The translations under genes and the position numbers were made by a program. From the NCBI GenBank assembly GCA_031263105.1, contig JAISGJ010000136.1:1-43128 (forward strand): a stretch of 43,128 nucleotides of DNA, written 5' to 3'. Positions within the stretch are counted from its first letter, which is position 1; the number at the start of each line of letters is the position of its first letter. The notes beneath the pieces were generated by a model, which saw only the letters and a program-made list of their open reading frames with translations, ran no database searches and was not told the origin of the DNA. This DNA comes from Coriobacteriales bacterium. GTDB lineage: Bacteria > Actinomycetota > Coriobacteriia > Coriobacteriales > UBA8131. This document shows positions 230 through 38,535 of this stretch, one piece after another.

Positions 230-517
230 ATGACAGACACACAGAAGGTAGAGAAGGTCAAGGCACTCATAGAGGAAGTCAGGGTGCTCTCGGAGAAGCT
301 CTCGGAGGACGAGCTCGAGCAGATTGCAGGAGGCCAGTGGTGCTATTGCCTCCTCGGCGGCGGCGGGACAGCAAACGGCCTGGACGAGATATGCGGGTGT
401 GTCGGAGGAGGCGTCGGCAAGACTAGGAATCCGAACAATGAACCCGGAATTAATTCTACCGGAACACGATGCGTATGCACCATCTCGGGTGGCGGGCGCG
501 ATTACAGCACCGTGTAG
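230..517 (+). CDS. RiPP precursor peptide P1 (double-glycine leader, three CxC pairs), orphan copy on the opposite strand
   Basis: SD AAGGAGG (216-222) lies 7 nt before the ATG. The leader MTDTQKVEKVKALIEEVRVLSEKLSEDELEQIAGG is shared with five other small ORFs. The core contains CYC, CGC and CVC. Confidence 0.8.
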   Translation: MTDTQKVEKVKALIEEVRVLSEKLSEDELEQIAGGQWCYCLLGGGGTANGLDEICGCVGGGVGKTRNPNNEPGINSTGTRCVCTISGGGRDYSTV

Positions 518-2205: not shown

Positions 2206-3294
2206 TTAGGATTCCGAATGTCGGAGCAGGTACTCTTGCATGTAGGGGACGTCGAAGCTGATTATGCCGCGTCCCGTCGCCTTGACGACGCCGCTTTCGA
2301 TCAGTCGCAGGCGGTATTTCGCCGCGTAGCCGGAGCTGACCTGCAGGCGCGCGGCCATCTCGGCCATCGAAACGCTGCTCCCGCTCTCTGCCATGGCGAA
2401 GAGGAACGCCTGATCCTTCGCGGACAGCTCGCGCATGATGAGCGCATGGATGTTCCTGAACAGGTCCGCCTTTGAGTTGAGCAGGGCGCGCTCGACGTCG
2501 AGCCTCGACAGGGCCTCCCCTTTGCCTTTCCAGAGATAGTATCCGAGCAGCTGGATCAGGTAGGGGAACCCGCACGTCGCCTTTGCTGCCATAGCGGCCG
2601 TCTCCTCGGTTATCCCCACCTCTGCTTTCTCAAACACCCGTCTGAAGAGATCCTCTGTCAGCATTGCGTCCACACCGGAGAGGAACACCCGGTTCGAGCG
2701 ATGGAGGAACGTCAGGATTTTGTCGTTAAGAACACTGCTCACGGACTGGGGCAGGCCGGCCATAAGAAGCGCGACGTCGTGGTTCTCGCGCATGAGGTGC
2801 TGGTACGTGATCACGAGCTCGCGCATCTCGTCGTTGGCCCTGTGAACCTCGTCGACAAGAAAGACAATGCCCCTGCCGTCGCTTTTCAGCTCGTTTGCCA
2901 GCGAGGTCAGATGGTAACGGAACCCGTGCTCTGGCTCCTTGACGGACGTCGCCACGCCGACGCTGAAGCCCAGCGCCCCGGCATTCAGCCCTATTACGTG
3001 GCGCTTGGCGCTTGGCGAGTCCGCCTGCAGCTGGTCGAGAACAGACTGCAGGAAATGGGGACCCGCAGTCACATCGACAACAGCGAACCGCTTTGAGTCC
3101 AGCGTGTCGCGCACATCGGTAAGGAGCGCGGTCTTGCCCGATCCCCTGATTCCTGAAACCACGGTGACCCGGTTGGGGTCGTTGGGGTTGTCCAAGCCAC
3201 AGAGGAAGTCGCGAACGATGTAGTCACGACCGATAAAGTACTCAGGGCGTTTGCCGAACTGTGGATGAAACGGATTTGCTGCCAGCGCCTCCAT
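2206..3294 (-). CDS. ATP-binding protein (STAND/ORC-like AAA ATPase with C-terminal winged-helix-like region)
   Basis: 362-aa ORF. Walker A is GIRGSGKTALL and Walker B is IVFLVDEVH. The C-terminal segment LQVSSGYAAKYRLRLIESGVV looks like an HTH. Confidence 0.7.
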   Translation of the reverse strand: MEALAANPFHPQFGKRPEYFIGRDYIVRDFLCGLDNPNDPNRVTVVSGIRGSGKTALLTDVRDTLDSKRFAVVDVTAGPHFLQSVLDQLQADSPSAKRHVIGLNAGALGFSVGVATSVKEPEHGFRYHLTSLANELKSDGRGIVFLVDEVHRANDEMRELVITYQHLMRENHDVALLMAGLPQSVSSVLNDKILTFLHRSNRVFLSGVDAMLTEDLFRRVFEKAEVGITEETAAMAAKATCGFPYLIQLLGYYLWKGKGEALSRLDVERALLNSKADLFRNIHALIMRELSAKDQAFLFAMAESGSSVSMAEMAARLQVSSGYAAKYRLRLIESGVVKATGRGIISFDVPYMQEYLLRHSES

Positions 3295-3429: not shown

Positions 3430-5610
3430 CTAGTCCAGCTGCTGGCGGCGGACGAGGTCGGCGAAGAGGCCGCCTTGGGCCACGAGATCGTCGTAGCTGC
3501 CGTCCTCGGCGATGGCACCGTCCTCCAGCACGACGATGCGGTCGGCCTCCTTGATGGTGGAGAGGCGGTGGGCCACGATGATGCGGGTGCTCCTGAGCGC
3601 CGCGAGGGACTCGGAGACCTGCCGCTGCGTGATGTTGTCGAGTGCGCTCGTCGCCTCGTCGAACATGAGGATGCTCGGCTTCGACGCTATCGCGCGCGCT
3701 ATCATGATGCGCTGCTTCTGGCCGCCGGAAAGCCCGCCGGAGCCTTCGCTCACCATGGTCCGCATCCCCATGGGCATGGCGCGGATGTCGGCGGCGACCC
3801 CCGCCATCTCGGCGGCCTCCCAGGCCTCCTTGAGCGTGATCTGCGGCGCGGCGATGCCGATGTTGGAGAAGATGTCGCCCTGGAACAGGTCGCCGGTCTG
3901 CAGGACGACGCCGATGTTGCCCCTGAGAGACTTCAGGTCGAGCTTGCCCATGTCCTTCTCGTCATAGTATATCGCGCCTGCCTGGGGCGCCTCGAAGCCG
4001 AGGAGCAGCCGCAGCAGGGTGGACTTCCCGCAGCCGGTCTTGCCCACCAGGGCAAGGTACTCGCCCCGCCTGATGGTCAGATCCAGATTGTCGAGGACAG
4101 GCGGCGCGTCCTTCTCGTAGGCGAAGGAGACCCCCTCGATACGAATGGAGCCGCCCAGGGAGCGCAGTATCTCCTTGCTCTCCCCCAGCTCGGACGGCTC
4201 TTCGAGCAGGGGCTTTGCAATCTCAAGGATAGGCTTGATGTTCGCCATGGTGCCCACGATGCCGACGATCGGGATGAGTGCGCCGGAGACCTGCCCGAAG
4301 GCCGTCATGAAGGCGAAGTACTGCGGGACGTCCACGCCAGAGGTCGCCGCGACGAAATAGATGAACAGGAGACCTGCAATCCCCACCACCGCGTTCAGGG
4401 CCGGCATCAGCTTCAGCAGGACAGGCGGGTTGTAGTCGCAGCGCGCCTGCTCCTTGTAGATGTCCGCCCATTTTGCGAAGGCCCGCTTCTCGGCGCCGGA
4501 AAGCCGTAGCTTTTGGATGCCGGAGAACAGCGAGAACACGAGTGCGCTCAAGCGATTGGCAAGCGGCAGCCTCCTGCGCATGAGCGCCTGCTCCAGGCGC
4601 ACGCCCAAAAGCCCCACCGCGACCTGCAAGGCTATGGCGACGATGGCGGGCAGCGCAAGGCTTGGCGCTATGGAGAAGATCTGCGCCACATAGACCACGG
4701 AGAATATCGAGGCGAACGACGTCGTGAAGGCGACGGAGACGACGAGGGACGCGACCGAGCTCAGGTTGTTCATCCGGTTCGACAGGTCGCCTGCGCTGAA
4801 GCCCTTGAAGAAGACCGGCGGCATGTTGATGAGCTTGCCGAAGACGGCGCTCTCCATGACTATCTGCAGCTTGGTGGCGATGCGCGTCTCCGCGAGGCTT
4901 TTCAGGATGCCGAAGAGGATCGTCGAGAGCGAGACCCCCACCAGCAAAGCGGCAATCGCCCCCAGCTCCGAGAGCCGCCCCGAGGGGATCACGTGCGAGA
5001 AGATGAACTCGTTCGCCCAGGGCAGGGCAAGCCCCACGAGCGCCACGGCGACGGTCGCGAGCAGCACCAGGGAGAAGTCAGCCTTCTCGGTGCGCTCGAA
5101 CAGGAACCTGACAATGCCGCGCAAGTCGGTCGCGTCGTTGGGGAGCGGCCGGTAGAAGCAGATCGCGTCCCCTTCGAGCGCCTCTGCGGCCCGGGCGTTC
5201 ATCCTCACCTTCTGTCGACGCCCGTAATCGAAGAAGCGGTAGCCGCTCAACGTGGGGACGAGCGCCACATAGCCTCCCGCCTTGGTCTTGCACAGCATCG
5301 CCTCACTCGCGTTCTTCCACCACGCGCCCTCAAGCGACACATGGCGCCACATGACGCCGGACGGCCTGAGCAGGCGCTCGAGCCAGTCGTCGCCCTCCGT
5401 GTCGAAGTCGTCGCCCGCGTCGCGGGCGATGCCGTAGAAGCGGCATATCTCATCGACCGCGCTGCGCGTCCTTGTCTGCTCGCTCGACACGTACTCGGAG
5501 GCGACCTTCTCCCCCATGAGGACCGCCGCGAGGTCAAGGGTGGCATTGGTGAGCTGCGCGTCGTCGAAGGCAACCCGGTCGCGGATCTGTTTTTCCTGAA
5601 ATTGCACCAT
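3430..5610 (-). CDS. bacteriocin/RiPP-type ABC exporter, permease-ATPase without a recognisable C39 catalytic domain
   Basis: Start chosen at ATG 5610 (MVQFQEKQ...), 5 nt after the stop of the upstream gene. Walker A is GKTGCGKST, signature is LSGGQKQR and Walker B is ILMFDEATSALD. There are six or so TM segments. The N-terminal ~170 aa show no Cys/His peptidase motif. Confidence 0.85.
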   Translation of the reverse strand: MVQFQEKQIRDRVAFDDAQLTNATLDLAAVLMGEKVASEYVSSEQTRTRSAVDEICRFYGIARDAGDDFDTEGDDWLERLLRPSGVMWRHVSLEGAWWKNASEAMLCKTKAGGYVALVPTLSGYRFFDYGRRQKVRMNARAAEALEGDAICFYRPLPNDATDLRGIVRFLFERTEKADFSLVLLATVAVALVGLALPWANEFIFSHVIPSGRLSELGAIAALLVGVSLSTILFGILKSLAETRIATKLQIVMESAVFGKLINMPPVFFKGFSAGDLSNRMNNLSSVASLVVSVAFTTSFASIFSVVYVAQIFSIAPSLALPAIVAIALQVAVGLLGVRLEQALMRRRLPLANRLSALVFSLFSGIQKLRLSGAEKRAFAKWADIYKEQARCDYNPPVLLKLMPALNAVVGIAGLLFIYFVAATSGVDVPQYFAFMTAFGQVSGALIPIVGIVGTMANIKPILEIAKPLLEEPSELGESKEILRSLGGSIRIEGVSFAYEKDAPPVLDNLDLTIRRGEYLALVGKTGCGKSTLLRLLLGFEAPQAGAIYYDEKDMGKLDLKSLRGNIGVVLQTGDLFQGDIFSNIGIAAPQITLKEAWEAAEMAGVAADIRAMPMGMRTMVSEGSGGLSGGQKQRIMIARAIASKPSILMFDEATSALDNITQRQVSESLAALRSTRIIVAHRLSTIKEADRIVVLEDGAIAEDGSYDDLVAQGGLFADLVRRQQLD
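3696..3732. repeat. 37-bp exact direct repeat, copy 2 (inside the intact ABC gene)
   Basis: Identical to 702-738. It covers the LSGGQKQRIMIA codons of the 3430-5610 gene. Confidence 0.9.
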
Positions 5611-5615
5611 GTGGG

Positions 5616-7829
5616 TCACTCCATCGAGATCAGCTTCGTGTAGAGCCCTCCGGCGGCAAAGAGCTCCGCGTGTGTGCCGCGTTCCTGCACGCGGCCCTGG
5701 TCCAACACGATGATCTCGTCGGCGTCGCGTATCGTCGAGAGGCGGTGCGCCACGATCACGCAGGTGATGCCGCGCTCCCGTATGGAGCGGATGACCTCGT
5801 ATTCCGTCTTCGCGTCCAAGGCGCTCGTCGCCTCGTCCAAGATGAGCAGGGTGGGGTCCTGGGCCAGCGCGCACGCGATCTCTATCCTTTGGCGCTGCCC
5901 GCCCGAGAAGTTCTTGCCGCCCTCGGAGACCGTGTCGTTGTAGCCCCGTGGGCGCCGCACGATCTCCTCGTGTATCGCGGCGTCACGCGCCGCGAGGATG
6001 ACCTCGAAGTCCTCGATGCTCTTGTCCCACATCTTGATGTTCTCGGAGACGCTGTCCTCGAACATGATGATGTCCTGGTCGACCACGGCGATCGAGGAGG
6101 TGAAGGCGACCCGGGGAATCTCCGAGCGCGCCTTGCCGTCGTAGGTGATGCTGCCGCTCCACGGGTCGTACAGGCCGGAGATCAGCTTCGCCAGCGTGGA
6201 CTTCCCGCAGCCCGACGCCCCCACGAAGGCGACCTTGGAGCCGGGCGCAAGCCTCATGTCGAAGTCTTGGATGAGCGGCTCGGCCAGAGGCGAGTAGCCG
6301 AAGGTGACCCCTTCCATGCGGATCTCTCCGCGCAGCTTCTCGAGGCGCGTGTCATCTTCGAAGTCGGCGTTGGCTGCATCGACGTCCGCCTCGTAGTGCA
6401 TGACGTCCTCGATGCGCTCCATCGACACCCGCATCTCCTGGATGCCCTGCCCTGTGGTTATGAGGCTGTTCACAGGGTTGAGGAAGGCCTGCACGAACGA
6501 CTGGAAGGCGAGCAGCATGCCGGCGGTGAACTGCCCTGCCATGATGAGCGCCACGCCCAGCATCAGAATCAGGAGGTTGAGAAGGCTCTGCACGAGGCCG
6601 GGCAGCGAGCCGAGCGAGAAGTTGAGGGCGGCGGTCTTGGTGGCCGACTCGGTATACAAGGCGTACAGGCCGGCCCACTTCGCGAAGAACCCGTTCTCTG
6701 CGCCCACGGACTTGATGGTCTCCATCATGGAGATGCCGGTCAGCGTCATCCCCTGGAGCATGCTCTGGTTGCGCACCTGGACCCGTGATATGTCCACCCG
6801 CCTCTTTGAGATGACATACGCGAGCGCCACGTTCAGGAGCGTCGCCGCACAGGCGATGCAGGCGAGCAGGACGTTGTAGCGCATCATGACGGTCAGGTAG
6901 ATGACAAGGAGCGCCGCGTTTATGAGCACGGGGGCGACCCGCATGACGAAGGTCGCCGCTATCGCGTCGTTCGACGCCTGCCTGAGGGCGATGTCCCCCG
7001 CGAGCCTCTGGGAGAAGAAGCGCATGGGCAGCCTCAGCACATGCCAGATGAAGCCCGCGTTCGAGGATATGGCCAGCCTGCCCGCCACCTTGAACAGGTA
7101 GAACTGGTTGAGGGCGAGCGCGATGAACATGAACGCCCCGAAGGCGGCGAACACGCCCAGGAAGGGCATGAGCCAGGCCTGGTCCGCCTGCGCAAGTATC
7201 CGGTCGGTGAAGACGCGCATGAACGACGGCTGGACGATGCCGCCGACCGCGATGAGCGCGCTCATGAGCGCAAGCAGCACCAAGGCTGAGAAGGAGCCTG
7301 TCAGGCGCTCCCGCACAAAGCCCAGCACGCTGCGCGGCTTGCCTTCGGGCCTGAAGTCGGGCCCGGGGCTCAGTGTGATGCATATCCCGGAATAGGAGTG
7401 CTTGAACTTCTCGAACTCCAGGTCGTAACGGCCCCGTGCCGGGTCGCTGATGCAGGCTGTCGCGCCGCCTCGCTTGAAGCCCTCCAAGACGACGAAGTGG
7501 CTGAAGTTCCAGAAGAGGATGCAGGGAAAGGACGTCTTCGCCGCAAGCTCCTCCGCCTCGTACTTGAAGCCCTTGGCCTCGAGCCCATGGTTGCGCGCGG
7601 CCTTGAGGATGTTGCGGGCGGTGCTGCCGTCCCGCGAGACGCCGCAGTCCTCGCGCAGCTTTTCGAGGGGGATCCACTTGCGGTAGTGCGCGAGCACCAT
7701 GTCGAGGGAGGCGGCCCCGCACTCGGCGGCCTCCATCTGGAGGATCACGGGAACCTTTATGCGCCTTGCCTTTGCGCGCGTCGGCCGCATCTTCTGTTGT
7801 GCGTTCTCGTTGTCTTGTCCGGTCGTCAT
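5616..7829 (-). CDS. C39 peptidase-domain ABC exporter (double-glycine leader cleavage and export)
   Basis: The N-terminal LQMEAAECGAASLDMVLAHY supplies the catalytic Cys and FSHFVVLEG supplies the His. Walker A is GASGCGKST, signature is FSGGQRQR and Walker B is LLILDEATSALD. Confidence 0.9.
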   Translation of the reverse strand: MTTGQDNENAQQKMRPTRAKARRIKVPVILQMEAAECGAASLDMVLAHYRKWIPLEKLREDCGVSRDGSTARNILKAARNHGLEAKGFKYEAEELAAKTSFPCILFWNFSHFVVLEGFKRGGATACISDPARGRYDLEFEKFKHSYSGICITLSPGPDFRPEGKPRSVLGFVRERLTGSFSALVLLALMSALIAVGGIVQPSFMRVFTDRILAQADQAWLMPFLGVFAAFGAFMFIALALNQFYLFKVAGRLAISSNAGFIWHVLRLPMRFFSQRLAGDIALRQASNDAIAATFVMRVAPVLINAALLVIYLTVMMRYNVLLACIACAATLLNVALAYVISKRRVDISRVQVRNQSMLQGMTLTGISMMETIKSVGAENGFFAKWAGLYALYTESATKTAALNFSLGSLPGLVQSLLNLLILMLGVALIMAGQFTAGMLLAFQSFVQAFLNPVNSLITTGQGIQEMRVSMERIEDVMHYEADVDAANADFEDDTRLEKLRGEIRMEGVTFGYSPLAEPLIQDFDMRLAPGSKVAFVGASGCGKSTLAKLISGLYDPWSGSITYDGKARSEIPRVAFTSSIAVVDQDIIMFEDSVSENIKMWDKSIEDFEVILAARDAAIHEEIVRRPRGYNDTVSEGGKNFSGGQRQRIEIACALAQDPTLLILDEATSALDAKTEYEVIRSIRERGITCVIVAHRLSTIRDADEIIVLDQGRVQERGTHAELFAAGGLYTKLISME

Positions 7830-7857: not shown

Positions 7858-8403
7858 TCAGTTGAGCAAGAACGAGATGAGCTTTTCCTCGCGTGTGACG
7901 ATGGTGACCTCCGCGACGGTATCGCCGGTTCCTGTCGGGGCGCCGTCGGCCGCGACACCCCCAGGGGCAGCGTCTATCGTCACGCGGTACCCGAAGGGGC
8001 TCGTGGCCAGAAGGTAGGCCATCCACGCGTCGGCCTGCTCGTCGGCGACCTCCTCCTGCGAGAGCGGACGGGCGCCGACCTCGGCGACGGTGCCCTCGAG
8101 AACCGTGCCGTCGGGCATGGCCACGCGCGCATCGCAGCCGACAAGCGGCGTGGACGGCATCTGCTCGACCGGTATGTAGCTCACGACGCTTCCGTCCTCA
8201 TGGACAAGCCCCGTGGCGGAGAGGGTCTGGGAGAAGCTGCCCGTGAATCCCCAGATCAGGGCACCCGCCACGAACACCACGAGCGCGGCCACCGCAATCC
8301 AGGCGCTGGGCCGCACCACCCTCAGATAACCGTCGAGCCTCTCCGGCGAGAGCACCCGTTCGATGGCCTCCTCGCTGAACAGCTCCCGTTTCGTCTCAGC
8401 CAT
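7858..8403 (-). CDS. short HlyD/membrane-fusion-like secretion protein (181 aa)
   Basis: The N-terminus FSEEAIERVLSPERLDGYLRVVRPSAWIAVAALVVFVAGALIW resembles NHLP/Nif11-type bacteriocin secretion proteins. It has a single TM segment. It lacks the long coiled-coil portion of normal HlyD proteins. Confidence 0.6.
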   Translation of the reverse strand: MAETKRELFSEEAIERVLSPERLDGYLRVVRPSAWIAVAALVVFVAGALIWGFTGSFSQTLSATGLVHEDGSVVSYIPVEQMPSTPLVGCDARVAMPDGTVLEGTVAEVGARPLSQEEVADEQADAWMAYLLATSPFGYRVTIDAAPGGVAADGAPTGTGDTVAEVTIVTREEKLISFLLN

Positions 8404-8438: not shown

Positions 8439-8729
8439 CTACCTTTCGATGGAAGCCGGGCCAATCCCACTGTAAGGGTCAAGGTCTGCTCCGAAGCCGT
8501 AGGCGTGGCAGCCGCATCGTATTCCCTCGTCATTCGTGCCCTCGCCACCTGTTTCACAGGAACACAGCTTACTGCCATGGTCGTTTCCCTGTCCATCCCC
8601 GCCTAAGGCACAGATACAGACGCCGCCGCCCGCAACCTGCTCAAGTTCGTCTTCCGAGAGCTCCGCTGAGAGCTCCTCGATTTCTCCCATGAGCGCCTTG
8701 ACCTTCTCTACCTTCTGTGTGTCCGTCAA
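8439..8729 (-). CDS. RiPP precursor peptide P2 (GG leader, CIC/CSC/CGC core)
   Basis: TTG start (8727-8729) lies 7 nt after GGAGG. The leader is MTDTQKVEKVKALMGEIEELSAELSEDELEQVAGG. Confidence 0.8.
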   Translation of the reverse strand: MTDTQKVEKVKALMGEIEELSAELSEDELEQVAGGGVCICALGGDGQGNDHGSKLCSCETGGEGTNDEGIRCGCHAYGFGADLDPYSGIGPASIER

Positions 8730-8768: not shown

Positions 8769-8937
8769 CTAGGGAAGTGCCGATTAATTGCTTGTGCGCC
8801 AGATTGCGCCTGATCTGCCCCAGGTCTGTTCGGGGGCGCAACGCCACTACTTGCGGTAATGGCGTTGTGCTCACGGGCAGAGCTGGGGCAGATCAGGCGT
8901 GAGATGGTGCGCAATGAATTAATCGGTGCTTCCCTAG
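8769..8937. mobile_element. 169-bp MITE-like hairpin element flanked by CTAG
   Basis: The 32-nt imperfect terminal inverted repeats (8769-8800 and 8906-8937) are 26/32 complementary by hand count. An inner perfect 17-nt inverted repeat lies at 8807-8823 and 8883-8899. A related copy is at 21595-21660. Confidence 0.6.
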
Positions 8938-9203
8938 CACTTATCTATTCCCCAGCCGGCACCGGCACAGGCACATCGTGGATACATGCTGCTTTTGTCG
9001 GCGTCGGAGCGCCCGCTGCCAGAAAACACGCATGCACACGCGTGATCACCCCGGCCGTTCCCTTCTCCACCTCCAATCGCAGGGCAGACGCAGACGCCGC
9101 CGCCCGCGACCTGCTCAAGCTCGTCTTCCGAGAGCTCCGCTGAGAGCTCCTCGATTTCTCCCATGAGCGCCTTGGCCTTCTCTACCTTCTGTGTGTCCGT
9201 CAT
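8934..9203 (-). CDS. RiPP precursor peptide P3 (GG leader, CVC/CAC/CAC core plus C-terminal Cys)
   Basis: ATG start preceded by GGAGGG. The leader DNA is 104/108 identical to P2 by hand alignment. The stop codon TAG lies in the terminal CTAG of the hairpin element. Confidence 0.8.
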   Translation of the reverse strand: MTDTQKVEKAKALMGEIEELSAELSEDELEQVAGGGVCVCPAIGGGEGNGRGDHACACVFSGSGRSDADKSSMYPRCACAGAGWGIDKC

Positions 9204-9363: not shown

Positions 9364-9729
9364 TTATTTCCCCGCACCTAGCATTGAACAGCCGCAAACA
9401 GGGCTGAGCTCGCCGCCGCCGCCGCCGCCGCCGGCGGAACCGCACGTGCCGGCACCGTCGGCCCCGTCAGCTCCAAACCCGCCGCTGCTGCAGGCACAGC
9501 GCAGATTGCCCGGATTCGATAAAGACCCTGGGCTTGTGGTGCCCGCGCCAAAGGCAGCACAAAAACACTCGCCGCCCTGATCGGTCGCGCTGCCATAACC
9601 GCTCGCCGCGCAGTCGCACGCACCGCCGCCCGCGACCTGTTCAAGCTCGTCTTCCGAGAGCTCCTCCGAAAGCTCCTCGACCTCCTCGGCGAGGGCTTCG
9701 ACCTTCTCCACCTTCTCTGTGTCTGTCAT
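9364..9729 (-). CDS. RiPP precursor peptide P4 (GG leader, CDC/CFC/CAC core with long Gly-rich tail)
   Basis: Start placed at the internal ATG 9729 (MTDTEKVEK...), which matches all paralogs. The 23 upstream codons of the track ORF have no paralog support. Confidence 0.75.
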   Translation of the reverse strand: MTDTEKVEKVEALAEEVEELSEELSEDELEQVAGGGACDCAASGYGSATDQGGECFCAAFGAGTTSPGSLSNPGNLRCACSSGGFGADGADGAGTCGSAGGGGGGGELSPVCGCSMLGAGK

Positions 9730-9842: not shown

Positions 9843-10211
9843 TCACAAAATAGAAAGCATGGTGCACGCGGTGCCGCCGCCACCGCCGGAACCCGCGTTG
9901 CCGCCAGCAGCGGCAATCATACCGGGGAGGGCGCACCCAGGGCCGGCAGTTTCGCCCCCGGACCCGCTCCCTGAGCAGGCGCAACGCAGGTGGTCTGGAT
10001 CCGATGAATCGGCGACTGTGGTGCCTGCGCCAAGGGCGGAGCAGGTGCATCGGCCGCCCTTGTCGGTCGCGCCGCCGTAGCCGCTCCCTGTGCAGTTGCA
10101 CGCGGCACCGCCCGCGACCTGTTCAAGCTCGTCTTCCGAGAGCTCCTCCGAAAGCTTCTCGACCTCCTCGGCGAGGGCTTCGACCTTCTCGGCCTTCTCT
10201 GTGTCTGTCAT
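9843..10211 (-). CDS. RiPP precursor peptide P5 (GG leader, CNC/CTC/CAC core with Gly-rich tail)
   Basis: The ATG overlaps the rSAM stop (ATGA at 10208-10211). Its SD AAGGAGG lies inside the rSAM 3' end. Confidence 0.8.
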   Translation of the reverse strand: MTDTEKAEKVEALAEEVEKLSEELSEDELEQVAGGAACNCTGSGYGGATDKGGRCTCSALGAGTTVADSSDPDHLRCACSGSGSGGETAGPGCALPGMIAAAGGNAGSGGGGGTACTMLSIL

Positions 10212-11710
10212 GGTGATGCCTCCTTTTCTTTTGAAATCAACCGATGGGAGGACGGGTCGGGTGACCCATCCTCTTTTTGCCTCCTTTTGCTCGCTCCTTC
10301 GTCGCGCTTCACTGACGCCGCATCAATACCTCCCGCCGCTGTCGCAGTCTCATATATCCGCTCGGCAAAGCCGCCGCGAAGTATCAGGCAGAAGCCCTCG
10401 TCGGGCGCCATGAGGTCGTCGGGGTGGTCCACCAGCGCAGAGGCGCGGCAGCCGGCGCCGCAGACGAGGCGCTGCTCGCACGTTTGACAGCGCTCGTTGT
10501 GCGCAAGGTAGTCCTTGAGGCGCGTGTCGATGAAGCCCATGTAGTACGAGTCGCTCAGGCACTGCGCGAGGCTCATGTCCTCGAGTCCCGGGAAGTCCTG
10601 TTGTATGTCCATACCGGAAAGCGCCATGCAGGGAAGCACCTTGCCGTCGGCGGCGATATACATGACCTGACGCGCGTGGCCGCATACGCACTGGGCCATA
10701 AGGGCCGTCTCGTCGCCCCCGCAGGACTTCTGCGCGGGTATCTGAAACGCAGGGTCGCCCCTCCTCGCGTAGAAGGCCCCGCCGAGCATGACGTTCATCG
10801 GCTGGCCGTCCTCGTAGTAGTGCGGGATGTAGTCGAGATAGGCCTCGAGCGTCTCCTCGAGGGACAGGTCGTCGTCGCCCGCGTTCTGCGCCCAGGCGCC
10901 CGTCTTGCCCGCAGGGTTCGTCTTGATGTGGGCGACGCCGAGCCCCGCGAGGTGGTTGATGCTCTCGCGCAGCGTGCCCTTGTTGCGCTGGTGCAAGGTG
11001 AGCTCCGCCCCCAACGGGAAGCCGCGCTCATGGCAGAGCGCGAGCGCACGGTTCACCTCCCGCTCCGCACCCTCGACGCCGCGCAGCCAGTCGTGGAAGC
11101 CCACGCCGTCGAAGCTCATGTTGAACTCCGGGCGGATGCCGCGCGCATCGAAGCCGTCGAGCAGCTCCGGCGTGACGAGCTTGCCGTTGGAGTAGACGGT
11201 CGTGATGCGGATGCGGTAGGCGAGCAGACGGTCGATGATCTGCCAGAAGTCCTTCCTGACCAGTGGCTCGCCCCCGGTGATCGAGACCTCGCGGATGCCG
11301 CAGCCCGCTATCTCGTCGGCTATGCTCAGGCACTTCTCCGTGGAGAGCTGGCCGTACTTGGCGTCCGGTGCCGACATGTAGCAGTGGCGGCAGCGGTAGT
11401 TGCAGTGCCCCGTGATCGACCAGTGGGCCGTGCGCATGAAGCGGGAGTCGAAGCGGCGGTATCTCTGCCATGCGTCCAGCCTGCTGCCCGGGGCGCACTC
11501 GCTGACGATCCCGCTCCCAGCAAGCTTCTCGACGGTGGGGTGCAGCCGTTCGGGGATGTGCTCCATGCCTATCTCGCCGTCGCAGCAGCTCAGGGCCTCG
11601 AAGGCATCGGCATCCAAGAATGACACGCCGTAGCTTGGGGTGAACAGCGCGAAGGGGAGCCTCTGCCAGCCCCTCAGCGCATAGCCCTTGTTCAGGATGT
11701 AGCTTGTCAC
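10208..11710 (-). CDS. radical SAM / SPASM-domain peptide maturase with N-terminal RRE-like domain
   Basis: CNYRCRHC matches CX3CX2C and GGEPL is present. The C-terminal Cys clusters CVCGH...VLPC and CQTCEQRLVCGAGC are SPASM-like. The N-terminal ~95 aa precede the rSAM core. The GTG start overlaps the P6 stop. Confidence 0.85.
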   Translation of the reverse strand: MTSYILNKGYALRGWQRLPFALFTPSYGVSFLDADAFEALSCCDGEIGMEHIPERLHPTVEKLAGSGIVSECAPGSRLDAWQRYRRFDSRFMRTAHWSITGHCNYRCRHCYMSAPDAKYGQLSTEKCLSIADEIAGCGIREVSITGGEPLVRKDFWQIIDRLLAYRIRITTVYSNGKLVTPELLDGFDARGIRPEFNMSFDGVGFHDWLRGVEGAEREVNRALALCHERGFPLGAELTLHQRNKGTLRESINHLAGLGVAHIKTNPAGKTGAWAQNAGDDDLSLEETLEAYLDYIPHYYEDGQPMNVMLGGAFYARRGDPAFQIPAQKSCGGDETALMAQCVCGHARQVMYIAADGKVLPCMALSGMDIQQDFPGLEDMSLAQCLSDSYYMGFIDTRLKDYLAHNERCQTCEQRLVCGAGCRASALVDHPDDLMAPDEGFCLILRGGFAERIYETATAAGGIDAASVKRDEGASKRRQKEDGSPDPSSHRLISKEKEASP

Positions 11711-11898
11711 AATATGGCTTCAAGCGGCAATCTGCTGTCTTTTACGGTGCCATCTTCGAGATACACCACGGGGGCATTGAGTTCGAACGGCAGGCCGCCT
11801 GCCACCTGCTCGAGCTCCTCCTCCGTGAGCTCCTTCGAGAGCTGCTTGACCTCCTCGATGAGAGCCTTGATCCTTGCCACCTTCTCTGTGTCAGTCAT
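11707..11898 (-). CDS. RiPP precursor-like peptide P6 (same GG leader, cysteine-free core)
   Basis: The leader is MTDTEKVARIKALIEEVKQLSKELTEEELEQVAGG. The core is LPFELNAPVVYLEDGTVKDSRLPLEAIL. SD AAGGAG lies 8 nt upstream, and the stop overlaps the rSAM GTG. Confidence 0.7.
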   Translation of the reverse strand: MTDTEKVARIKALIEEVKQLSKELTEEELEQVAGGLPFELNAPVVYLEDGTVKDSRLPLEAIL

Positions 11899-11917
11899 AG
11901 TTCCCGCTCCTTTTCTC

Positions 11918-14719
11918 CTAGCTGGCGTACTGGGCGTCGAGCTCGCGGGCGAGCAGGGCGTTCTTCTGGTTCTTCACGATGCGCTCAAGGTGCGTGAGGA
12001 GGGTCGGCTCTATGTCGGGGTGGGCCGCCATCCAGGCATCGGTGCGATCGACGGTTGCCTGGCCGGCCAGGCCGAAGGGGTAGAAGTTCTGAACGAGCGT
12101 GGTGGAGATCGCGTTGCTGTTGTTCTCGATGACGGACTGCAGGCGCTCGAAGTAGACCTCGTCCAAGCCCGCATACACCTCGCTGGCATCGGGGTAACGC
12201 ACATACGGGTTGTAGAAGTACCAGGTCGCGTCCGCCTCTGCAAAGCTCATCTCCTTGCCGGAGAAGTAGGTATCGAGCAGGGAGCGCCTGACCTCGGTGG
12301 TGGGGAAGCGCAGCCTGGAGCGCTCGCTGAGAGTCACGATCTCGGGCTCGTCCGCGCCCAGCTCCGCAATCAGCGCGTCGATGTCCTCCGCACCGGCCTG
12401 GCCCGCCGCAATGAGCGTGTTGAGCGCACCGAAGCGGATGTAGGGCGCGCGCCACACGGTGGTGCCAGCCATGACCTCGCGCAGGAACGCGATGCTCTTC
12501 TCGGAATCGGAACGGAGCGCACATACCAGGACGGGCATGATGGTGTCCTCGCCCCATGCGTCGAAGACCCCCGCATTCAAGGCGTCCACTATCGCATCGG
12601 CGACGGCGCCGGTGCTGCGCCCGAGGTTCTCGTCGGCCGTCAGCGAGTACAGGTCTGCGCCCATGGCCGCACCGTCGAGCGACTTGTCGCTGAGCACTGC
12701 GATCTCGTAAGGGGAGCGCGTGGCCGCAAGGACGTCTGCAATGACGCCAAGGGTGCGCGAGGCAGGGTATTTGAGGTCGCGCGTCATCTGCATCAGGTCA
12801 AAGACGGCGAGGGTCCTTACGAAGGGATCGTCCAGCGCCCCGATGTGCTGCTCGAGCGTCGCAAGGCTCACCTCGTCGAAGACGACCTTGGAGTAGTCCG
12901 CGCCCGCATGGTCTATAAGGATGAGGTCGGGGCGCTCGGCGCCGGCTACGGCGGGCACCTCGGTCTCGTCACCCGAGACGAGCACCTCGTGCGCGTCACG
13001 CAGCACGAGCCGCTCGGCACCGCCCTCGCCCACCAGGTCGTAGAAGCCTATCTCCAGCTTGTGCGTGCGCAAAAGCGGCGTGTTGGCGCCGCCCGTGTAC
13101 TCCTCTGCGGCCTGGGTCACCACAAGCCGCTCGATGCGGCCCTGCTCGTCCGTCTCCACCACGGGGGCGAGCGTGTTGACGCCGGTGGCGGTGAGCCACT
13201 CCTCGGACCAGCCCGCCATGTCTATGTCCGCATAGGGCTGGAAGGCGGCGATGAAGTCGCTGAGCCTGGCGTTGCCCTCCGCATGCTGTGCGAAGTAGTC
13301 GTGGATGCCGCTCCTGAAGCTCTCCTCGCCCACGAGCGCATGGAGCTGCGTGAGCGCCATGCTCCCCTTGGCATAGGTGATGTTGTCCACGTTGGCATCC
13401 GACTGCTCGATGGTGATGTCCGAGTCGGACGCGATGGCATGGGTCGCGGGGCCCTGGTCCTGGTCAACGGCGGCAAGCCGCGTCAGGTCCTGCCCGTAGA
13501 TGAGGTAGTCGTCGTTGCCCGTAAGGGCCGCGACGGCCCTAAGCGAGATGAACTCGGCAAAGGACTCGTTGAGCCACAGGTCGTTCCACCATTCCATGGT
13601 CACAAGGTTGCCGAACCACTGGTGCGCAAGTTCGTGCAGGATGGTGATGTCGTTATACATGCGCTCGAAGAGCGAGTCGGCATACACCTCATGGAGCGTG
13701 ACGGCACCGACGTTCTCCATGCCGCCCCAGAGGAAGTTCGGCACGTAGATCTGGTCGTACTTCTCGTAGGGGAACTCCGTGCCGAACGCCTGCTCGTAGT
13801 ACGCGATCCCGGCCTTGGTGAGGTCGAACCACGCGTCGAAGTCCGCCCCCTCGGCCACGGAGGGGCGCGCATAGAAGCCGAGGGGCACCTGGCGACCGTC
13901 CGAGGCCTCGTAGGTGGACGTGACCTGGACGTAGTCGCCCGCTATGAGGGAGCTGAGGTAGGTGCTCATGAGCGGCGAGGGCGCGAACTCCCAGTGCCTC
14001 GTGTCGCCGTTCTCCGTGGGCTCACCGACCGGATCGGTGGCGGTGACGACCGTCCACTGCTTCGGCGCGTCCACGCTGAGGGTGAAGTGCGCCTTGAGGT
14101 TGGGCTGGTCGAAGCACGCGAAGACGCTCTGGGCGTAGGCAGACTCGTGCTGCGTGTAGATGAAGGTCTGGCCCTCGTCCTCGGGAGGGGCCTCGCGCAT
14201 GATGCCGACGCCGGATACGGAGTAGCCGTTCGTGGCGGTGAGGCGCAGCGTATTGGCGGCCTCAAGGCCCGTGAGCAGGATGCGCCCGTGCTCCTTGTCG
14301 TAGACCGCTGCGGGGTCGAGTTCCGTGCCGTTGAGCTCGATGCTCCCGATGTCCGCAAGGCGCGCGTCGATGAAGCTCTCCGCGCCCGGCTCGGCGCTGA
14401 AGCTCACCTCCTCGGTGAGGGCATAGGTCTCGCTCGTGCCATCCAGCTCGAACGCGAGCGCGTAGTCGATGTCCGAGAGCGCGGATGCCCGCGCGAGCAT
14501 CTCCTCATAGGTGACGTAGGCCGTCTGCACGCCCTCGGACGTGCCTGTCGCGTCCGACGTCGCCGCAGGGGCTGTGTCCGCAGGGGCACCGCCCGCAGGG
14601 GCGGCGTCCTGTGCGCCCGGTTGCCCGCTCGAACACGCCGTCGCACCGACGGTGCCGAGCGCCAGCAGCAGCGCCAGCAGCAGCGCCAGCAGTTTACGCG
14701 AGAATGTCGTAGTCGTCAT
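11918..14719 (-). CDS. M1-family zinc aminopeptidase (PepN-like), probable lipoprotein
   Basis: It has the GGMEN exopeptidase motif and HELAHQWFGN...WLNESFAEF (HEXXH-18-E). The N-terminal signal ends in the lipobox-like ATAC. The stop is 19 nt from the P6 start. Confidence 0.85.
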   Translation of the reverse strand: MTTTTFSRKLLALLLALLLALGTVGATACSSGQPGAQDAAPAGGAPADTAPAATSDATGTSEGVQTAYVTYEEMLARASALSDIDYALAFELDGTSETYALTEEVSFSAEPGAESFIDARLADIGSIELNGTELDPAAVYDKEHGRILLTGLEAANTLRLTATNGYSVSGVGIMREAPPEDEGQTFIYTQHESAYAQSVFACFDQPNLKAHFTLSVDAPKQWTVVTATDPVGEPTENGDTRHWEFAPSPLMSTYLSSLIAGDYVQVTSTYEASDGRQVPLGFYARPSVAEGADFDAWFDLTKAGIAYYEQAFGTEFPYEKYDQIYVPNFLWGGMENVGAVTLHEVYADSLFERMYNDITILHELAHQWFGNLVTMEWWNDLWLNESFAEFISLRAVAALTGNDDYLIYGQDLTRLAAVDQDQGPATHAIASDSDITIEQSDANVDNITYAKGSMALTQLHALVGEESFRSGIHDYFAQHAEGNARLSDFIAAFQPYADIDMAGWSEEWLTATGVNTLAPVVETDEQGRIERLVVTQAAEEYTGGANTPLLRTHKLEIGFYDLVGEGGAERLVLRDAHEVLVSGDETEVPAVAGAERPDLILIDHAGADYSKVVFDEVSLATLEQHIGALDDPFVRTLAVFDLMQMTRDLKYPASRTLGVIADVLAATRSPYEIAVLSDKSLDGAAMGADLYSLTADENLGRSTGAVADAIVDALNAGVFDAWGEDTIMPVLVCALRSDSEKSIAFLREVMAGTTVWRAPYIRFGALNTLIAAGQAGAEDIDALIAELGADEPEIVTLSERSRLRFPTTEVRRSLLDTYFSGKEMSFAEADATWYFYNPYVRYPDASEVYAGLDEVYFERLQSVIENNSNAISTTLVQNFYPFGLAGQATVDRTDAWMAAHPDIEPTLLTHLERIVKNQKNALLARELDAQYAS

Positions 14720-14845: not shown

Positions 14846-15040
14846 GTTACAGATCACACCCCCACTGTCATCCCGAGCCTGCCGAGGGATCCTCGACCGC
14901 GCAAGCGGTCGACCGCAGTCAAAGGGTCCTGCGACCTGCGGTCGGCTGCTTCGCGTCCCGCGGGCCTGTCGGACTGTTCTCCGGGCGCTCGAACCCAAGG
15001 ATCCCTCGGCAGGCTCGGGATGACAGTGGGTGTGAGTAAC
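14846..15040. mobile_element. MITE family 2, copy A
   Basis: The terminal inverted repeats are GTTACAGATCACACCCCCACTGTCATCCCGAGCC and its complement GGCTCGGGATGACAGTGGGTGTGAGTAAC. The flanking 8-mers aggtgtcc and cgtggtcc match only partially. Confidence 0.7.
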
Positions 15041-28222: not shown

Positions 28223-28382
28223 GTTACTGGTCACACCCTCACTGTCATTCCGAGCCTGTCGAGGAATCTTCGACCGCTTCAGCGGTCGACCGCAAGTTGA
28301 GGGATCCCCCGACCTACCGTTGGTCGCTTCGCGACCAAGGATTCCTCGACGGGCTCGGAATGACAGCGAGGGTGTCAGTAAC
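28223..28382. mobile_element. MITE family 2, copy B, with 8-bp target-site duplication
   Basis: The TIRs are GTTACTGGTCACACCCTCACTGTCATTCCGAGCC and, at the other end, GGCTCGGAATGACAGCGAGGGTGTCAGTAAC. The perfect direct repeat GTCACAAA flanks it at 28215-28222 and 28383-28390. Confidence 0.8.
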
Positions 28383-31547: not shown

Positions 31548-31712
31548 GTTACTGAGGTCACACCCCCACTGTCATCCCGAGCCCCGCCGAGGGATCTTCG
31601 GCTGCGGAGCAGCCGACCGCAGGTCGAGGTGCCTTTCGGTCGCAGTCGGCCGCTGGCGCGGCCGAAGATTCCTCGGCAGGCTCGGAATGACAGTGGGGGT
31701 GTGACCTGTAAC
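31548..31712. mobile_element. MITE family 2, copy C, with 8-bp target-site duplication
   Basis: The TIRs are GTTACTGAGGTCACACCCCCACTGTCATCCCGAGCC and, at the other end, GGCTCGGAATGACAGTGGGGGTGTGACCTGTAAC. The perfect direct repeat TCTTCCTG flanks it at 31540-31547 and 31713-31720. Confidence 0.85.
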
Positions 31713-33607: not shown

Positions 33608-33888
33608 GTTACATCTCACACCCCACTGTCATTCCGAGCCTGTCGAGGAATCTTTGGGTCCGGGCGCCCGGAAAACGCACCGCGTCTTCAGCGAGGACGG
33701 CGCGACAGTCCAGTGGACTGTCGCGAGGCGAAGCTGCGGAGCAGCGCGTGAGCCTACGGAACCGACAGGCCCACGGAACGCGAAGCGACCAACGGTAGGT
33801 CGGGGATCCTCCGACCTGCGGTCGACCGCTGGCGCGGTCGAAGATTCCTCGACAGGCTCGGAATGACAGTGGGGGCGCGACCAGCAAC
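33608..33888. mobile_element. MITE family 2, copy D (degenerate, with internal insertion)
   Basis: The left TIR is GTTACATCTCACACCCCACTGTCATTCCGAGCC and the right end is GGCTCGGAATGACAGTGGGGGCGCGACCAGCAAC. There is no matching flanking 8-mer. It carries a 25-nt perfect palindrome at 33701-33725. Confidence 0.65.
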
Positions 33889-33999
33889 TTTTAGTTGTCA
33901 TAGGTGCCGTTTCTGCACGTGTCTCAGCCTCATGCTCGCTCGGGATATGCTATGATGCAGGCAGTGCTTTTTACATCGTCTCGAACGGGGAAGGCCGCT

Positions 34000-36234
34000 A
34001 TGCGGTACACGTTTGTGAAACAGCATGATATAACGGATTGCGCCGCCGCCTGCCTTGCGATGGTCTGCCTGCACTACAAGAAGGAGACCACCATCACGAG
34101 GCTGCGCGACATGATGGGCACGGACATCAAGGGGACCAACCTCATAGGCCTCGCCAAGTGCGCCGACGAGCTTGGCTTCGTGTCCCAGGCCGTCAAGGTC
34201 GACCGGCAGGGCTTCTTGAGCGAATACACGCGTCCCTGCATCGCAAACGTCCACACGCGGGAGGGCCTCAGCCACTTCGTCGTGGTCTTCAAGGTCGGCA
34301 GGGAGCACGTGGTCGTCGGCGACCCCGCGAAGGACCTGGAGCGCGTGACGGTCAACGACTTCTACCGGACCTTCACAGGCAACCTGCTGCTCCTGAAGCC
34401 TGACAACCGCTTCCAGAAGGGCCGCGTCAAGGGCGAGAAGGTCTTCGGCCGCTTCGTGAAGCTGCTGCTCCCGCAGAAGAAGCTGTTCGTCTTCTCAATC
34501 CTCGCCTCCCTCATCATGACGGTGCTCGGCATAGCCTCCTCGCTCTTCAACAAGATAGTGATGGACGAGATACTGCCCTACGAGCTCAGGGGCCTCCTCC
34601 TGAGCGTGCTGCTCATATTCGCGGCCGTCGCCCTCACGCAGGTGCTGATACAGTTCGTGCGCAGCTGGATGATGCTGTTTTTGTCCCAGAGGATAGACAT
34701 ACCGCTCATGCTCGGGTACTTCGAGCACATCTACAAGCTTCCGATGCGCTTCTTCGCCACGAGGAAGACGGGCGACATCATCACGCGCTTCTCCGACGCC
34801 TTCACCATCAAGGACATCTTCACGGGCATCGCGCTCACGCTCATCATGGACGTGGCCATGGCGCTCATCACCGGGGTGATACTGTTTCGGATGAACGCTA
34901 CGCTGTTCGGCATCATCGCCCTGCTCACGCTCGTGAGCGTCATCCTGGTCCTCTGCTTCCGGCTGCCGTACAAGAAGATAAACTTGGAGCAGATGCAGCA
35001 GGCCTCCATCCTCAACTCGGAGATCATCGAGGGGCTCAACGGGGTCGAGACCATCAAGGGCAACGCCAACGAGGAGGCCGAGCTCGAGAGCATCGAGCGC
35101 GAGTACATCAAGTCTTTGCGCATAGCCTTCAGGGAGGGGATGCTCTCCAACACGCAGGGCGCCATCTCGGGGGCCGTCGGGGCGATCGGGAACCTCGTGC
35201 TCATGTACTTTGGCGTGCTCCAGGTGATAGACAACGAGATCACGCTGGGGACGCTGATGGCCTTCATGACGCTGGCGGGCTTCTTCATGGACCCCGTGCA
35301 GCGCCTGGTCGGCCTGCAGCTGCAGATACAAGAGGCGAACATATCCATGAAGCGCGTCTCGGAGATCCTCGACTACGAGCAGGAGCAGGAGGGCGCGGAG
35401 CGCCGCCAGCCCTTCGAGGGCGCGGCGGGCGACGTCGCGTTCAAGGGCGTGACCTTCCGCTACGGCAACCGCAAGCCGGTGCTGCACGACGTCTCCTTCT
35501 CGATACCGAGGGGCCAGAAGCTCGCCCTCGTCGGCGCGAGCGGCAGCGGCAAGTCCACCGTCGCGAAGCTGCTCCTGAAGTACTACGAACCGGAGGCGGG
35601 CTCCGTCACCATCGACGGCGTGGACATCGAGGAGTACAGCAACGACTCGCTGCGCAGGGGCATATCCTACGTGCCCCAGCGCATAGAGCTGTTCTCGAAG
35701 AGCGTCTACGACAACATCCGCGTGACGAAAATGGACTCGACGCTGGAGGAGGTGAAGGAGGCCGCCAAGGCAGCCGACGCCCACGACTTCATACGCAGGC
35801 TGCCCCTGCAGTACCACACCTTCCTAGAGGAGTCCGGCAGCGGGCTCTCCGGCGGGGAGCAGCAGCGCATCGCCATCGCCCGCGCCTTCCTGAAGGAGAA
35901 CGACCTCTACGTCTTGGACGAGAGCACGAGCAACCTGGACTTCGGCACGGAGCGCGTCGTCTTCGACATGATCTACAACAGGCTCAAGGGCAAGACCATG
36001 CTCATCATCGCCCACCGGCTCTCCACGGTGAGGAACTGCGACCGGATAGTCGTGCTGGACAAGGGCGAGGTCGTCGAGCAGGGCAGCCACGAGGAGCTGC
36101 TCGCAAGGGAGGGGGTGTACTGGCGGCTCTGGGAGATGCAGCAAGGGAACGTCGTGGCAGGGGAGAAGAACGGTGATGGGGACGGTAAGGAGATTCCGGA
36201 AAGTCTAGATGATGACACAATCAGCTATCTGTAG
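34000..36234 (+). CDS. C39 peptidase-domain ABC bacteriocin exporter (ComA/LcnC-like)
   Basis: Start placed at ATG 34000. MRYTFVKQHDITDCAAACLAMVCLHY aligns with the N-termini of ComA/LcnC-type exporters. LSHFVVVFK supplies the His. Walker A is GASGSGKST and the signature is LSGGEQQR. Confidence 0.9.
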   Translation: MRYTFVKQHDITDCAAACLAMVCLHYKKETTITRLRDMMGTDIKGTNLIGLAKCADELGFVSQAVKVDRQGFLSEYTRPCIANVHTREGLSHFVVVFKVGREHVVVGDPAKDLERVTVNDFYRTFTGNLLLLKPDNRFQKGRVKGEKVFGRFVKLLLPQKKLFVFSILASLIMTVLGIASSLFNKIVMDEILPYELRGLLLSVLLIFAAVALTQVLIQFVRSWMMLFLSQRIDIPLMLGYFEHIYKLPMRFFATRKTGDIITRFSDAFTIKDIFTGIALTLIMDVAMALITGVILFRMNATLFGIIALLTLVSVILVLCFRLPYKKINLEQMQQASILNSEIIEGLNGVETIKGNANEEAELESIEREYIKSLRIAFREGMLSNTQGAISGAVGAIGNLVLMYFGVLQVIDNEITLGTLMAFMTLAGFFMDPVQRLVGLQLQIQEANISMKRVSEILDYEQEQEGAERRQPFEGAAGDVAFKGVTFRYGNRKPVLHDVSFSIPRGQKLALVGASGSGKSTVAKLLLKYYEPEAGSVTIDGVDIEEYSNDSLRRGISYVPQRIELFSKSVYDNIRVTKMDSTLEEVKEAAKAADAHDFIRRLPLQYHTFLEESGSGLSGGEQQRIAIARAFLKENDLYVLDESTSNLDFGTERVVFDMIYNRLKGKTMLIIAHRLSTVRNCDRIVVLDKGEVVEQGSHEELLAREGVYWRLWEMQQGNVVAGEKNGDGDGKEIPESLDDDTISYL

Positions 36235-36443
36235 GCCCAAAGATAGCGGTGTGAGTCATCGTTGTTTTCGGAGAAGAGGAGAGGACATGAACAGGATCAG
36301 ATCGGGGACAAGAGGATGCTCGCCGGGGCTCCATGAAACGAGACCGACCCGGCGAGCGATGAGTGAAATCGGTCTCGATGCCATTGAATTAGGGTCCGTG
36401 TTAACCCTTGTTCTAAACACTGTTGCGGAAAGGATGATTTATC

Positions 36444-36830: not shown

Positions 36831-36861
36831 GATATGGCATAGCCCAAGGAGGTGCTGATTA

Positions 36862-37327: not shown

Positions 37328-37452
37328 GAGCCAAAGAGGAAGGCCACAACGACTCTGCGTCAATTCCTGTTTTGTTTTTTCGTGGGTATGTCGCATATGG
37401 GTGTTACAGAAAAAAAGGAGGCGAGTTTTGTTCGACATGTTTGGGGCATGTG

Positions 37453-38513: not shown

Positions 38514-38535
38514 GCGGTAGAAGGAGGGCGCTTCT

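Follow-up and report, generated by a model that had tools for sequence, protein, structure and literature searches.

One conserved leader reportedly stands on many hypervariable cores in the families of Haft et al. 2010 and in the prochlorosins. BlaA (Cys13-Gly22, Cys15-Gly20) and StsA (CxCxC-x4-GxGxG) carry Cys-to-Gly alpha-carbon thioether hairpins made by radical S-adenosylmethionine (rSAM) enzymes, and the relatives closest to MftC are the StsB-type enzymes (PMC10288494). This work concerns P6, a gene in a stretch of 43,128 nucleotides from a Coriobacteriales bacterium (contig JAISGJ010000136.1), which we call the window. P6 encodes a peptide with a double-glycine (GG) leader and a Cys-free core, and its stop codon overlaps the start of an rSAM maturase gene. 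Judged from its sequence, P6 appears to be of a kind already known, a GG-leader peptide that shares an exporter with the precursors of peptides that ribosomes make and that are modified after translation (RiPPs); what would be new is its core family. We lean, with a confidence only a little better than even, to the view that P6 is an exported, thioether-free acidic peptide, possibly a signal, that shares the exporter of the cluster.

P6 is like the class II bacteriocins and the pheromones ComC and BlpC in its leader consensus, in the C39 peptidase-ATP-binding cassette (ABC) exporter of its cluster, in having paralogues with different cores on one exporter, and in a core of the type that is unmodified or needs no Cys. 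It differs from them in that the mature peptide is acidic (isoelectric point, pI, ~4.2), the conserved part is only 11 residues long, and no immunity gene or kinase/regulator pair adjoins it. Its leader of 35 residues, with a conserved N-terminal helix, is longer than is typical of class II. A class II bacteriocin is a cationic, amphiphilic or hydrophobic peptide with an adjacent immunity gene, which P6 is not, and the ComC model PF03047 gives 15.1 bits against a cut-off of 20.4, which does not place P6 among the ComC/BlpC pheromones. With the Nif11/NHLP families and their three-part NHLM exporter P6 has in common exporter subunits that match TIGR03796, TIGR03797 and TIGR03794, a conserved leader on hypervariable cores, and precursor genes that occur both as arrays and as orphans. 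However, the Nif11 model aligns only with the last ~20 residues of the leader (17.2 bits, cut-off 32.3), so P6 does not belong to the Nif11-like peptides (TIGR03798), and many cores of its leader family lack a modifiable pattern of Cys, Ser or Thr.

The StsA/StsB and BlaA/BlaB systems come closest through the neighbours of P6. The tandem CxC-x3-GxG units of the five Cys-rich precursors P1-P5 are like CxC-x4-GxG in BlaA and CxCxC-x4-GxGxG in StsA (PMC10288494), and an rSAM/SPASM enzyme with an RRE-like domain adjoins P6. P6 itself, however, has neither the donor Cys nor the GxG acceptor and lacks the sactipeptide-precursor motif. The StsB model is the second-best NCBIfam match of the enzyme, but its score of 89.4 bits falls far short of the cut-off of 625, and the enzyme does not belong to the StsB family and is at most a distant relative. 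The likeness to MftA is a resemblance of sequence only: the C-terminus of the short P6 relatives is Ile-Ile-Tyr, Ile-Leu-Tyr, Ile-Val-Tyr or Ile-Phe-Tyr, and P6 has Val-Val-Tyr. In P6 this Tyr is followed by 17 residues, unlike the free C-terminal Val-Tyr of MftA, and the mycofactocin genes MftB, MftD and MftE are absent.

The gene, its parts and the enzyme it overlaps lie as follows:
11907..11912, minus strand: P6 Shine-Dalgarno sequence AAGGAG, 8 nt before the ATG, found by comparing the upstream sequences of all cluster genes
11898..11707, minus strand: P6 gene for a 63-aa GG-leader peptide, stop codon included, from the list of open reading frames (ORFs) and the sequence
11794..11898, minus strand: P6 leader, 35 aa ending L-T-E-E-E-L-E-Q-V-A-G-G, of the subtype with Lys at -14 (LSKEL)
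11761..11793, minus strand: conserved motif LPFELNAPVVY at the start of the core, immediately behind the GG cleavage site, from a hidden Markov model (HMM) of five independent short cores and alignments
11710..11760, minus strand: 17-aa C-terminal tail LEDGTVKDSRLPLEAIL, found only in P6 and its orthologue P0002 and weakly conserved between the two
11707..11710, minus strand: GTGA overlap of the P6 stop TGA (11709..11707) with the rSAM start GTG (11710..11708), where the inserted P6 cassette joins the rSAM gene
10208..11710, minus strand: radical SAM/SPASM maturase of 500 aa with an N-terminal RRE-like domain and no Shine-Dalgarno sequence of its own

The translation of P6 reads MTDTEKVARIKALIEEVKQLSKELTEEELEQVAGG up to the boundary between leader and core and LPFELNAPVVYLEDGTVKDSRLPLEAIL beyond it. 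The ORF list, the sequence and an HMM of the leader bear out what the original prediction said of the reading frame, its GG leader and its Cys-free core of 28 residues (0 Cys, 1 Gly), and the predicted overlap of stop and start codons is there in the form GTGA. P6 is not a chance ORF because its leader scores E = 1e-22 with the HMM and because an orthologue of 74% identity, P0002, exists in a metagenome; on these grounds we regard it as a genuine small gene. Its ribosome-binding site resembles those of the other precursor genes in the cluster. We rejected the idea that P6 is a frameshifted Cys-rich core, as the other two frames of the core contain no CxC..GxG unit. A foreign origin by base composition was rejected as well: GC content at third codon positions is 0.61 in the P6 core but 0.59-0.74 in the cores of P2-P5 (0.85-0.91 in the enzymes), so the value is not specific to P6.

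The leader scores above threshold with the model TIGR01847 bacteriocin_sig (17.3 bits, cut-off 15.7), fits the consensus L-[ST]-x-x-E-L-x-x-[IV]-x-G-G, and is a double-glycine leader by its hydrophobic residues V32 (-4), L29 (-7) and L24 (-12) and the GG at -2/-1. The original prediction described it as the same leader that the other precursors carry. It is similar, but it belongs to a different subtype, and its amino-acid identity to the P1, P2, P3 and P5 leaders is only 63-69%, a figure that leaves out P4 because the coordinates used for it were 3 nt out of register. The leaders with Lys at -14 (LSKEL...), P6 among them, stand before a CxC..GxG core in 0/31 cases and the LS[AEQ]ELSEDEL leaders in 10/15, although these counts are not phylogenetically independent. 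Between P6 and P0002 the nucleotide differences in the leader are mostly silent or conservative. Taken on these comparisons of leader and core, the P6 lineage is separate from the five Cys-rich precursors around it.

The whole P6 core is shared by only one database protein, P0002, whose core is LPFAYDAPVVYLVDGTVSGSERPPEAMQ. With a profile of P6-like peptides, a search of 1.84 billion representative proteins found 69 peptides with a P6-type leader; their cores are very diverse, mostly Cys-free and short. Five cores align in register, counted from the GG, with the beginning of the P6 core: LAFEYNSTIIY, IYEYNNPILY, MPVEYNGCIVY, LPFDLSDTIIY and LYEYSSPIFY. Besides P6 and P0002 the members of this motif family are P0138, P0133, P0134, P0193 and P0194, two of them from a further search, and the consensus over 11 residues is L-[PA]-[FYV]-[ED]-[YL]-[NSD]-x-[PT]-[IV]-[IVLF]-Y. 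An HMM built from the five short cores, without P6 or P0002, places the P6 core at the top of 2335 sequences with 14.7 bits; the maximum is 7.2 bits among 335 other real GG cores and 6.6 among 2000 shuffled versions of the P6 core. P6 has the motif right after the GG and LSKEL at -16 to -12 of the leader, as the family is defined. A DNA alignment of the family contains synonymous differences at conserved residues, and we therefore take it that selection on the peptide maintains the 11-residue motif. In the five short members the sequence ends right after the Tyr, and P6 and P0002 alone extend 17 residues beyond it. An origin of this tail by loss of a stop codon was considered and not adopted; the tail and the spacers after the short genes are too weakly similar to call. 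The predicted pI of the P6 core is 4.18 and its charge -3.2. By its alignments and HMM scores we believe this is a small, previously undescribed core family.

In two loci (L146, L147) the motif peptides lie within arrays of short Cys-free GG peptides, just after a second ABC gene. Another (L148) combines five Cys-free GG peptides with a HlyD-like gene, a C39 peptidase-ABC exporter (PCAT) 59% identical to that of the window and a second ABC gene, and its 10.4 kb contain no rSAM gene. P0002 is an orphan gene beside a convergent gene for a LuxR-type regulator (locus L001).

Among the roles that the original prediction listed is that of a second type of substrate, and the argument for it from the position of P6 does not survive comparison with related loci. 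The nearest rSAM orthologues, L062 (88%), L064 (79%) and L150 (77%), lack P6. In each, a strong Shine-Dalgarno sequence precedes (A/G)TC AAC TAC ATC CTG.., which encodes M-N-Y-I-L... Homology of the window to these three begins at CTACATCC, and homology to the P0002 locus runs from the Shine-Dalgarno sequence through GTGACAA, just beyond the stop. Codons 1-3 of the window rSAM are the end of the P6 cassette, common to L001, and the protein begins M-T-S-Y-I-L. No Shine-Dalgarno sequence was found before the window rSAM start. We infer that insertion of a P6 cassette of ~215 bp replaced the Shine-Dalgarno sequence and ATC start of the enzyme, because the orthologues have their own Shine-Dalgarno sequence and no P6, and the P6 orthologue is an orphan elsewhere. 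Ribosomes ending P6 would then restart at the overlapping GTG, and translation of the rSAM would depend on P6 through termination-reinitiation. Going by these breakpoints, the coupling of P6 to the rSAM is real, but it is a by-product of a recent insertion and not a conserved design.

In close relatives the apparent native start of the rSAM is ATC after a strong Shine-Dalgarno sequence (L150 1200-1215, L064 ~7300-7315), and at ~190-200 of L062 the same codon is GTC, not known as a start codon; the rSAM proteins of these relatives come out truncated in automatic gene calls. An intergenic 31-nt repeat, CCTCGGCAGGCTCGGGATGACAGTGGGGGTG, has five copies in the window (14857-14887, 15004-15034, 28234-28264, 31671-31701 and 33847-33877), where none is expected by chance, with one more upstream of the rSAM at the locus of the 88% orthologue (L062 ~40-80). 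It may be an element like the repetitive extragenic palindromes or miniature inverted-repeat transposable elements (REP/MITE-like) that marks recombination-prone spacers.

The usual partners of the enzyme can be read from its relatives. The 142 homologous loci were scanned for GG-leader peptides by regular expression, which gave 287 matches on the rSAM strand and 6 on the opposite strand as a control. The dominant partner has exactly three C-x-C-x(2-4)-G-x-G units (113/266 distinct cores near rSAM homologues). Within the window P1, P2, P3 and P5 have three such units each, P4 has four and P6 has none. The place occupied by P6 had been called the canonical one for a substrate. However, precursors of this rSAM family are found upstream or downstream of the enzyme, the overlap of P6 and rSAM is lineage-specific, and where a GG peptide lies within 250 nt upstream of the rSAM (62 loci) its core has at least two Cys in 53. 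A Cys-free paralogue had been expected in homologous clusters; P6 itself is absent from the closest of them, but Cys-free GG peptides occur in ~17/111 loci of the rSAM family, unrelated to P6 and with no motif in common with it. The same rSAM family uses true Nif11-type leaders in Clostridia. By analogy with StsA and BlaA, P1-P5 are probably precursors of multi-hairpin sactipeptides. P6 cannot receive this Cys-to-Gly thioether chemistry because that chemistry needs Cys. A literature search on the three-unit CxC..GxG family and on sactipeptide clusters with Cys-free paralogues gave PMC10288494 as the sole relevant paper (PMC10352776 adds nothing). The three-unit family is very widespread, and beyond the distant analogy to StsA and BlaA we found no characterised member.

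The enzyme matches Pfam Radical_SAM and Fer4_12 above their cut-offs and SPASM with 19.5 bits against 21.5. Its AlphaFold (AF2) model has a pLDDT of 84 and its closest folds are SuiB, CteB, SkfB and PqqE, in alignments that span an N-terminal beta-sheet/helix domain; going by this model, that domain is an RRE-like leader-binding domain. A sequence search of the PDB returned only SkfB, PqqE and MoaA. Assignment to an NCBIfam family was tried and rejected, with no match near any cut-off for the window enzyme or four relatives, and because of this the inference about chemistry rests on the substrate motif and not on the enzyme. The database relatives number more than 1300. They occur in at least 474 species-representative genomes, mostly of gut Clostridia, Synergistaceae and Coriobacteriia at ~45-55% identity, and the closest (77-88%) are from metagenome-assembled genomes of Coriobacteriales and two JGI metagenomes.

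Cys-free peptides near these enzymes take several forms. Another Cys-free GG peptide (L064 6974-7198) lies ~130 nt upstream of the 79% rSAM orthologue and has a collagen-like GxY core. Collagen-like G-x-y triplets are a second recurrent type of Cys-free core on a P6-type leader, seen in L064 and P0158 (GEKGAVGEVGATGAVGPVGEVGPLGPR and GPTGGIGPTGAIGG..GPTGATGRDGATGAL). In L048 (rSAM 56% identical) a Cys-free GG peptide with the core TEQRPEDFEKNL follows a sigma-factor gene and ends 15 nt before the rSAM; genes like those for sigma-70 or extracytoplasmic-function (ECF) factors stand amid GG-leader peptide genes there (5217-5690) and in L149 (3023-3601) and may be a regulatory module. A Clostridial relative (L030, L031) has ~10 Cys-free GG peptides after the rSAM, among them three copies of WGDW/FLVLPQ.R.FSSDFD.PDYLRPN, another conserved Cys-free core family. 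The 77% orthologue (L150 36-3515) sits alone between HipA-like and amidase genes with no precursor or exporter nearby, which means that enzyme and substrates can be unlinked in this rSAM clade.

The cluster around P6 runs on the minus strand in the order pepN, P6, rSAM/SPASM, P5, P4, P3, P2, short HlyD-like gene, C39-ABC exporter and second ABC gene:
11918..14719, minus strand: aminopeptidase N (M1), pepN, directly upstream and co-directional, 19 nt before P6, with its stop TAG at 11918-11920; TIGR02412 566.7 bits (cut-off 591.2) and Pfam Peptidase_M1
9843..10211, minus strand: P5, Cys-rich precursor with 3 CxC-x3-GxG units
9364..9729, minus strand: P4, Cys-rich precursor with 4 units
8934..9203, minus strand: P3, Cys-rich precursor with 3 units
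8439..8729, minus strand: P2, Cys-rich precursor with 3 units, starting with TTG
7858..8403, minus strand: short HlyD-like secretion adaptor, 181 aa, with a partial TIGR03794 match (E = 5e-11)
5616..7829, minus strand: C39 peptidase-ABC exporter (PCAT) of NHLP type, TIGR03796 896.4 bits (cut-off 853.3)
3430..5604, minus strand: second ABC subunit of the NHLP-type exporter, TIGR03797 685.9 bits, just under the cut-off of 709.4
230..517, plus strand: P1, orphan Cys-rich precursor with 3 units

The translated exporter has the C39 Cys (ECGAAS) and His (NFSHFVV) motifs. P1 is split from the cluster by two AAA-ATPase-like genes (745-2037 and 2206-3294, minus strand). A crude scan found no minus-strand site like a promoter or terminator between pepN and P6, and a promoter of its own was rejected for P6, as the sole promoter-like site on that strand lies upstream of pepN; pepN and P6 are probably on one transcript. 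PepN begins with a hydrophobic, signal-like segment, LLALLLALLLALGTVGATAC, and may be extracellular or a lipoprotein. A pepN gene adjoins P6-type peptides both in the window, where P6 is downstream, and in L002 (2876-3595), where P0004 is upstream and the pepN is 83% identical. The window also holds a second locus of class II bacteriocin type (33904-39660, plus strand). It has a C39-ABC exporter (33904-36234, TIGR01193 594 bits), two small membrane-protein ORFs (37013-37327 and 37372-37737) and a HlyD gene (38536-39660). Its GG-leader peptide (36444-36830), MTEDEMTYVEGG followed by YIATSYG..., has a Gly-rich hydrophobic core with a pI of 9.7 and, unlike P6, resembles a cationic pore-former.

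We believe these data are best explained by export. P6 would be translated and its leader recognised by the C39-ABC exporter of the cluster, which would cut after Gly35 and release an acidic linear 28-mer (pI ~4.2, charge -3) without thioether bridges. P6 would be cargo that shares the export machinery and not a substrate of the sactisynthase-like rSAM. An exported peptide that uses the C39 exporter was among the proposals of the original prediction, and the TIGR01847 match, the TIGR03796 match and the arrays of the family beside this type of exporter make it the best fit; the signalling that was proposed with it has no kinase or regulator to support it. The peptide seems too acidic, and its conserved part too short, to be a typical pore-former of class II, and we suggest, with low confidence, that a signalling or accessory role is likelier. 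A histidine kinase or regulator was absent among the cluster genes and ten genes scanned elsewhere in the window, and no gene for a small membrane protein is adjacent to P6.

Several facts do not sit well with simple export. The surroundings of P6 yielded neither a receptor kinase or regulator nor an immunity gene. All 35 residues of the leader are conserved, including the N-terminal helix that is dispensable for a C39 domain, and given this full leader and the RRE-like domain of the model P6 is probably able to bind the rSAM. The aromatic, Asn and Tyr residues conserved in the core are of a type that is crosslinked by rSAM enzymes. A family member in L145 comes immediately after the 3' fragment of an rSAM gene of another subclade (~40% identical to the window enzyme), with Nif11-leader peptides around it. 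Orphan rSAM genes can sit far from their substrates, as in L150, and the absence of an rSAM from the 10-kb contig of L148 is then weak evidence. Finally, the relatives of the P6 family all come from short metagenome contigs of a few samples, so that their contexts are fragmentary and not independent.

The arguments for modification start in part from the same facts. P6 could be a second type of substrate, either of this rSAM or of a paralogous one elsewhere in the genome, that receives a change other than a thioether on F/Y-E-Y/L-N...V-V-Y, such as a C-C or C-O crosslink or the Tyr chemistry of MftC. The full-length leader and the RRE-like domain fit this, as do the tight coupling to the rSAM, the core rich in aromatics and Asn, and the L145 family member right behind the rSAM fragment. 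The short relatives end hydrophobic-hydrophobic-Tyr, which recalls the Val-Tyr of MftA, and the StsB-type enzymes are nearest to MftC (PMC10288494). Unrelated Cys-free GG peptides also stand immediately upstream of rSAM homologues in L048, L014 and L064, but the Cys-free peptides of other loci have no motif common to P6. Moreover, the partner cores of this rSAM clade are overwhelmingly CxC..GxG, the P6 leader is of a subtype unlike that of the Cys-rich substrates, P6 is missing from the nearest orthologues and its own orthologue is not beside an rSAM. The Tyr of P6 is internal, which makes an MftC-like decarboxylation impossible without trimming. We consider modification of P6 unlikely on balance. 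The broader form of the idea, that the rSAM/SPASM enzymes of this clade have in the LPFE(Y/L)N..VVY peptides a new class of Cys-free substrates, with a C-C or C-O crosslink or MftC-like Tyr chemistry and with P6 as a variant that has a C-terminal follower peptide, we think rather more doubtful.

It is also conceivable that P6 does nothing as a peptide. As a decaying or neutral remnant of a precursor cassette its sole present role would be that of an upstream frame delivering ribosomes to the rSAM start. By a hand count on the alignment the cores of P6 and P0002 differ at 11/28 codons, 10 of them changing the amino acid, the 17-aa tail is missing in other members and resembles read-through past the usual stop of the family, and the rSAM has no Shine-Dalgarno sequence. 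Against decay, the 11-residue motif is kept over seven members with synonymous changes at conserved residues, the leader is intact with nucleotide differences that are mostly silent or conservative, and P6 has a strong Shine-Dalgarno sequence; we regard a remnant as improbable. The original prediction also raised the possibility of an activator or decoy, in which the leader of P6 occupies the RRE domain of the rSAM or the C39 domain and tunes the processing of P1-P5. The complete leader, the RRE-like domain and a coupling that gives a fixed ratio to the enzyme would suit it, but no evidence for such a role was found. A conserved core motif would be unnecessary for it, members of the family also exist as orphans and in arrays at a distance from rSAM genes, and the closest clusters work without P6, all of which makes this role very improbable in our opinion.

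We therefore return to P6 as exported cargo. It is important to realize that a gene directly upstream of a maturase gene and overlapping it is not proof of a substrate, since here the arrangement appears to be a recent cassette insertion. The work defines a small conserved peptide family that is open to synthesis and to direct testing as a signal or antagonist, and it indicates what chemistry the very widespread family of three-unit CxC..GxG precursors around P6 is likely to undergo. If P6 is modified after all, there would be a second chemistry in this rSAM clade, and if its relatives form a new class of Cys-free substrates, two chemistries on two leader subtypes would be the work of one enzyme or of two paralogues. 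If our reading is correct, one leader and exporter system in these gut bacteria would carry heavily crosslinked sactipeptide-like products together with many short peptides that look unmodified.

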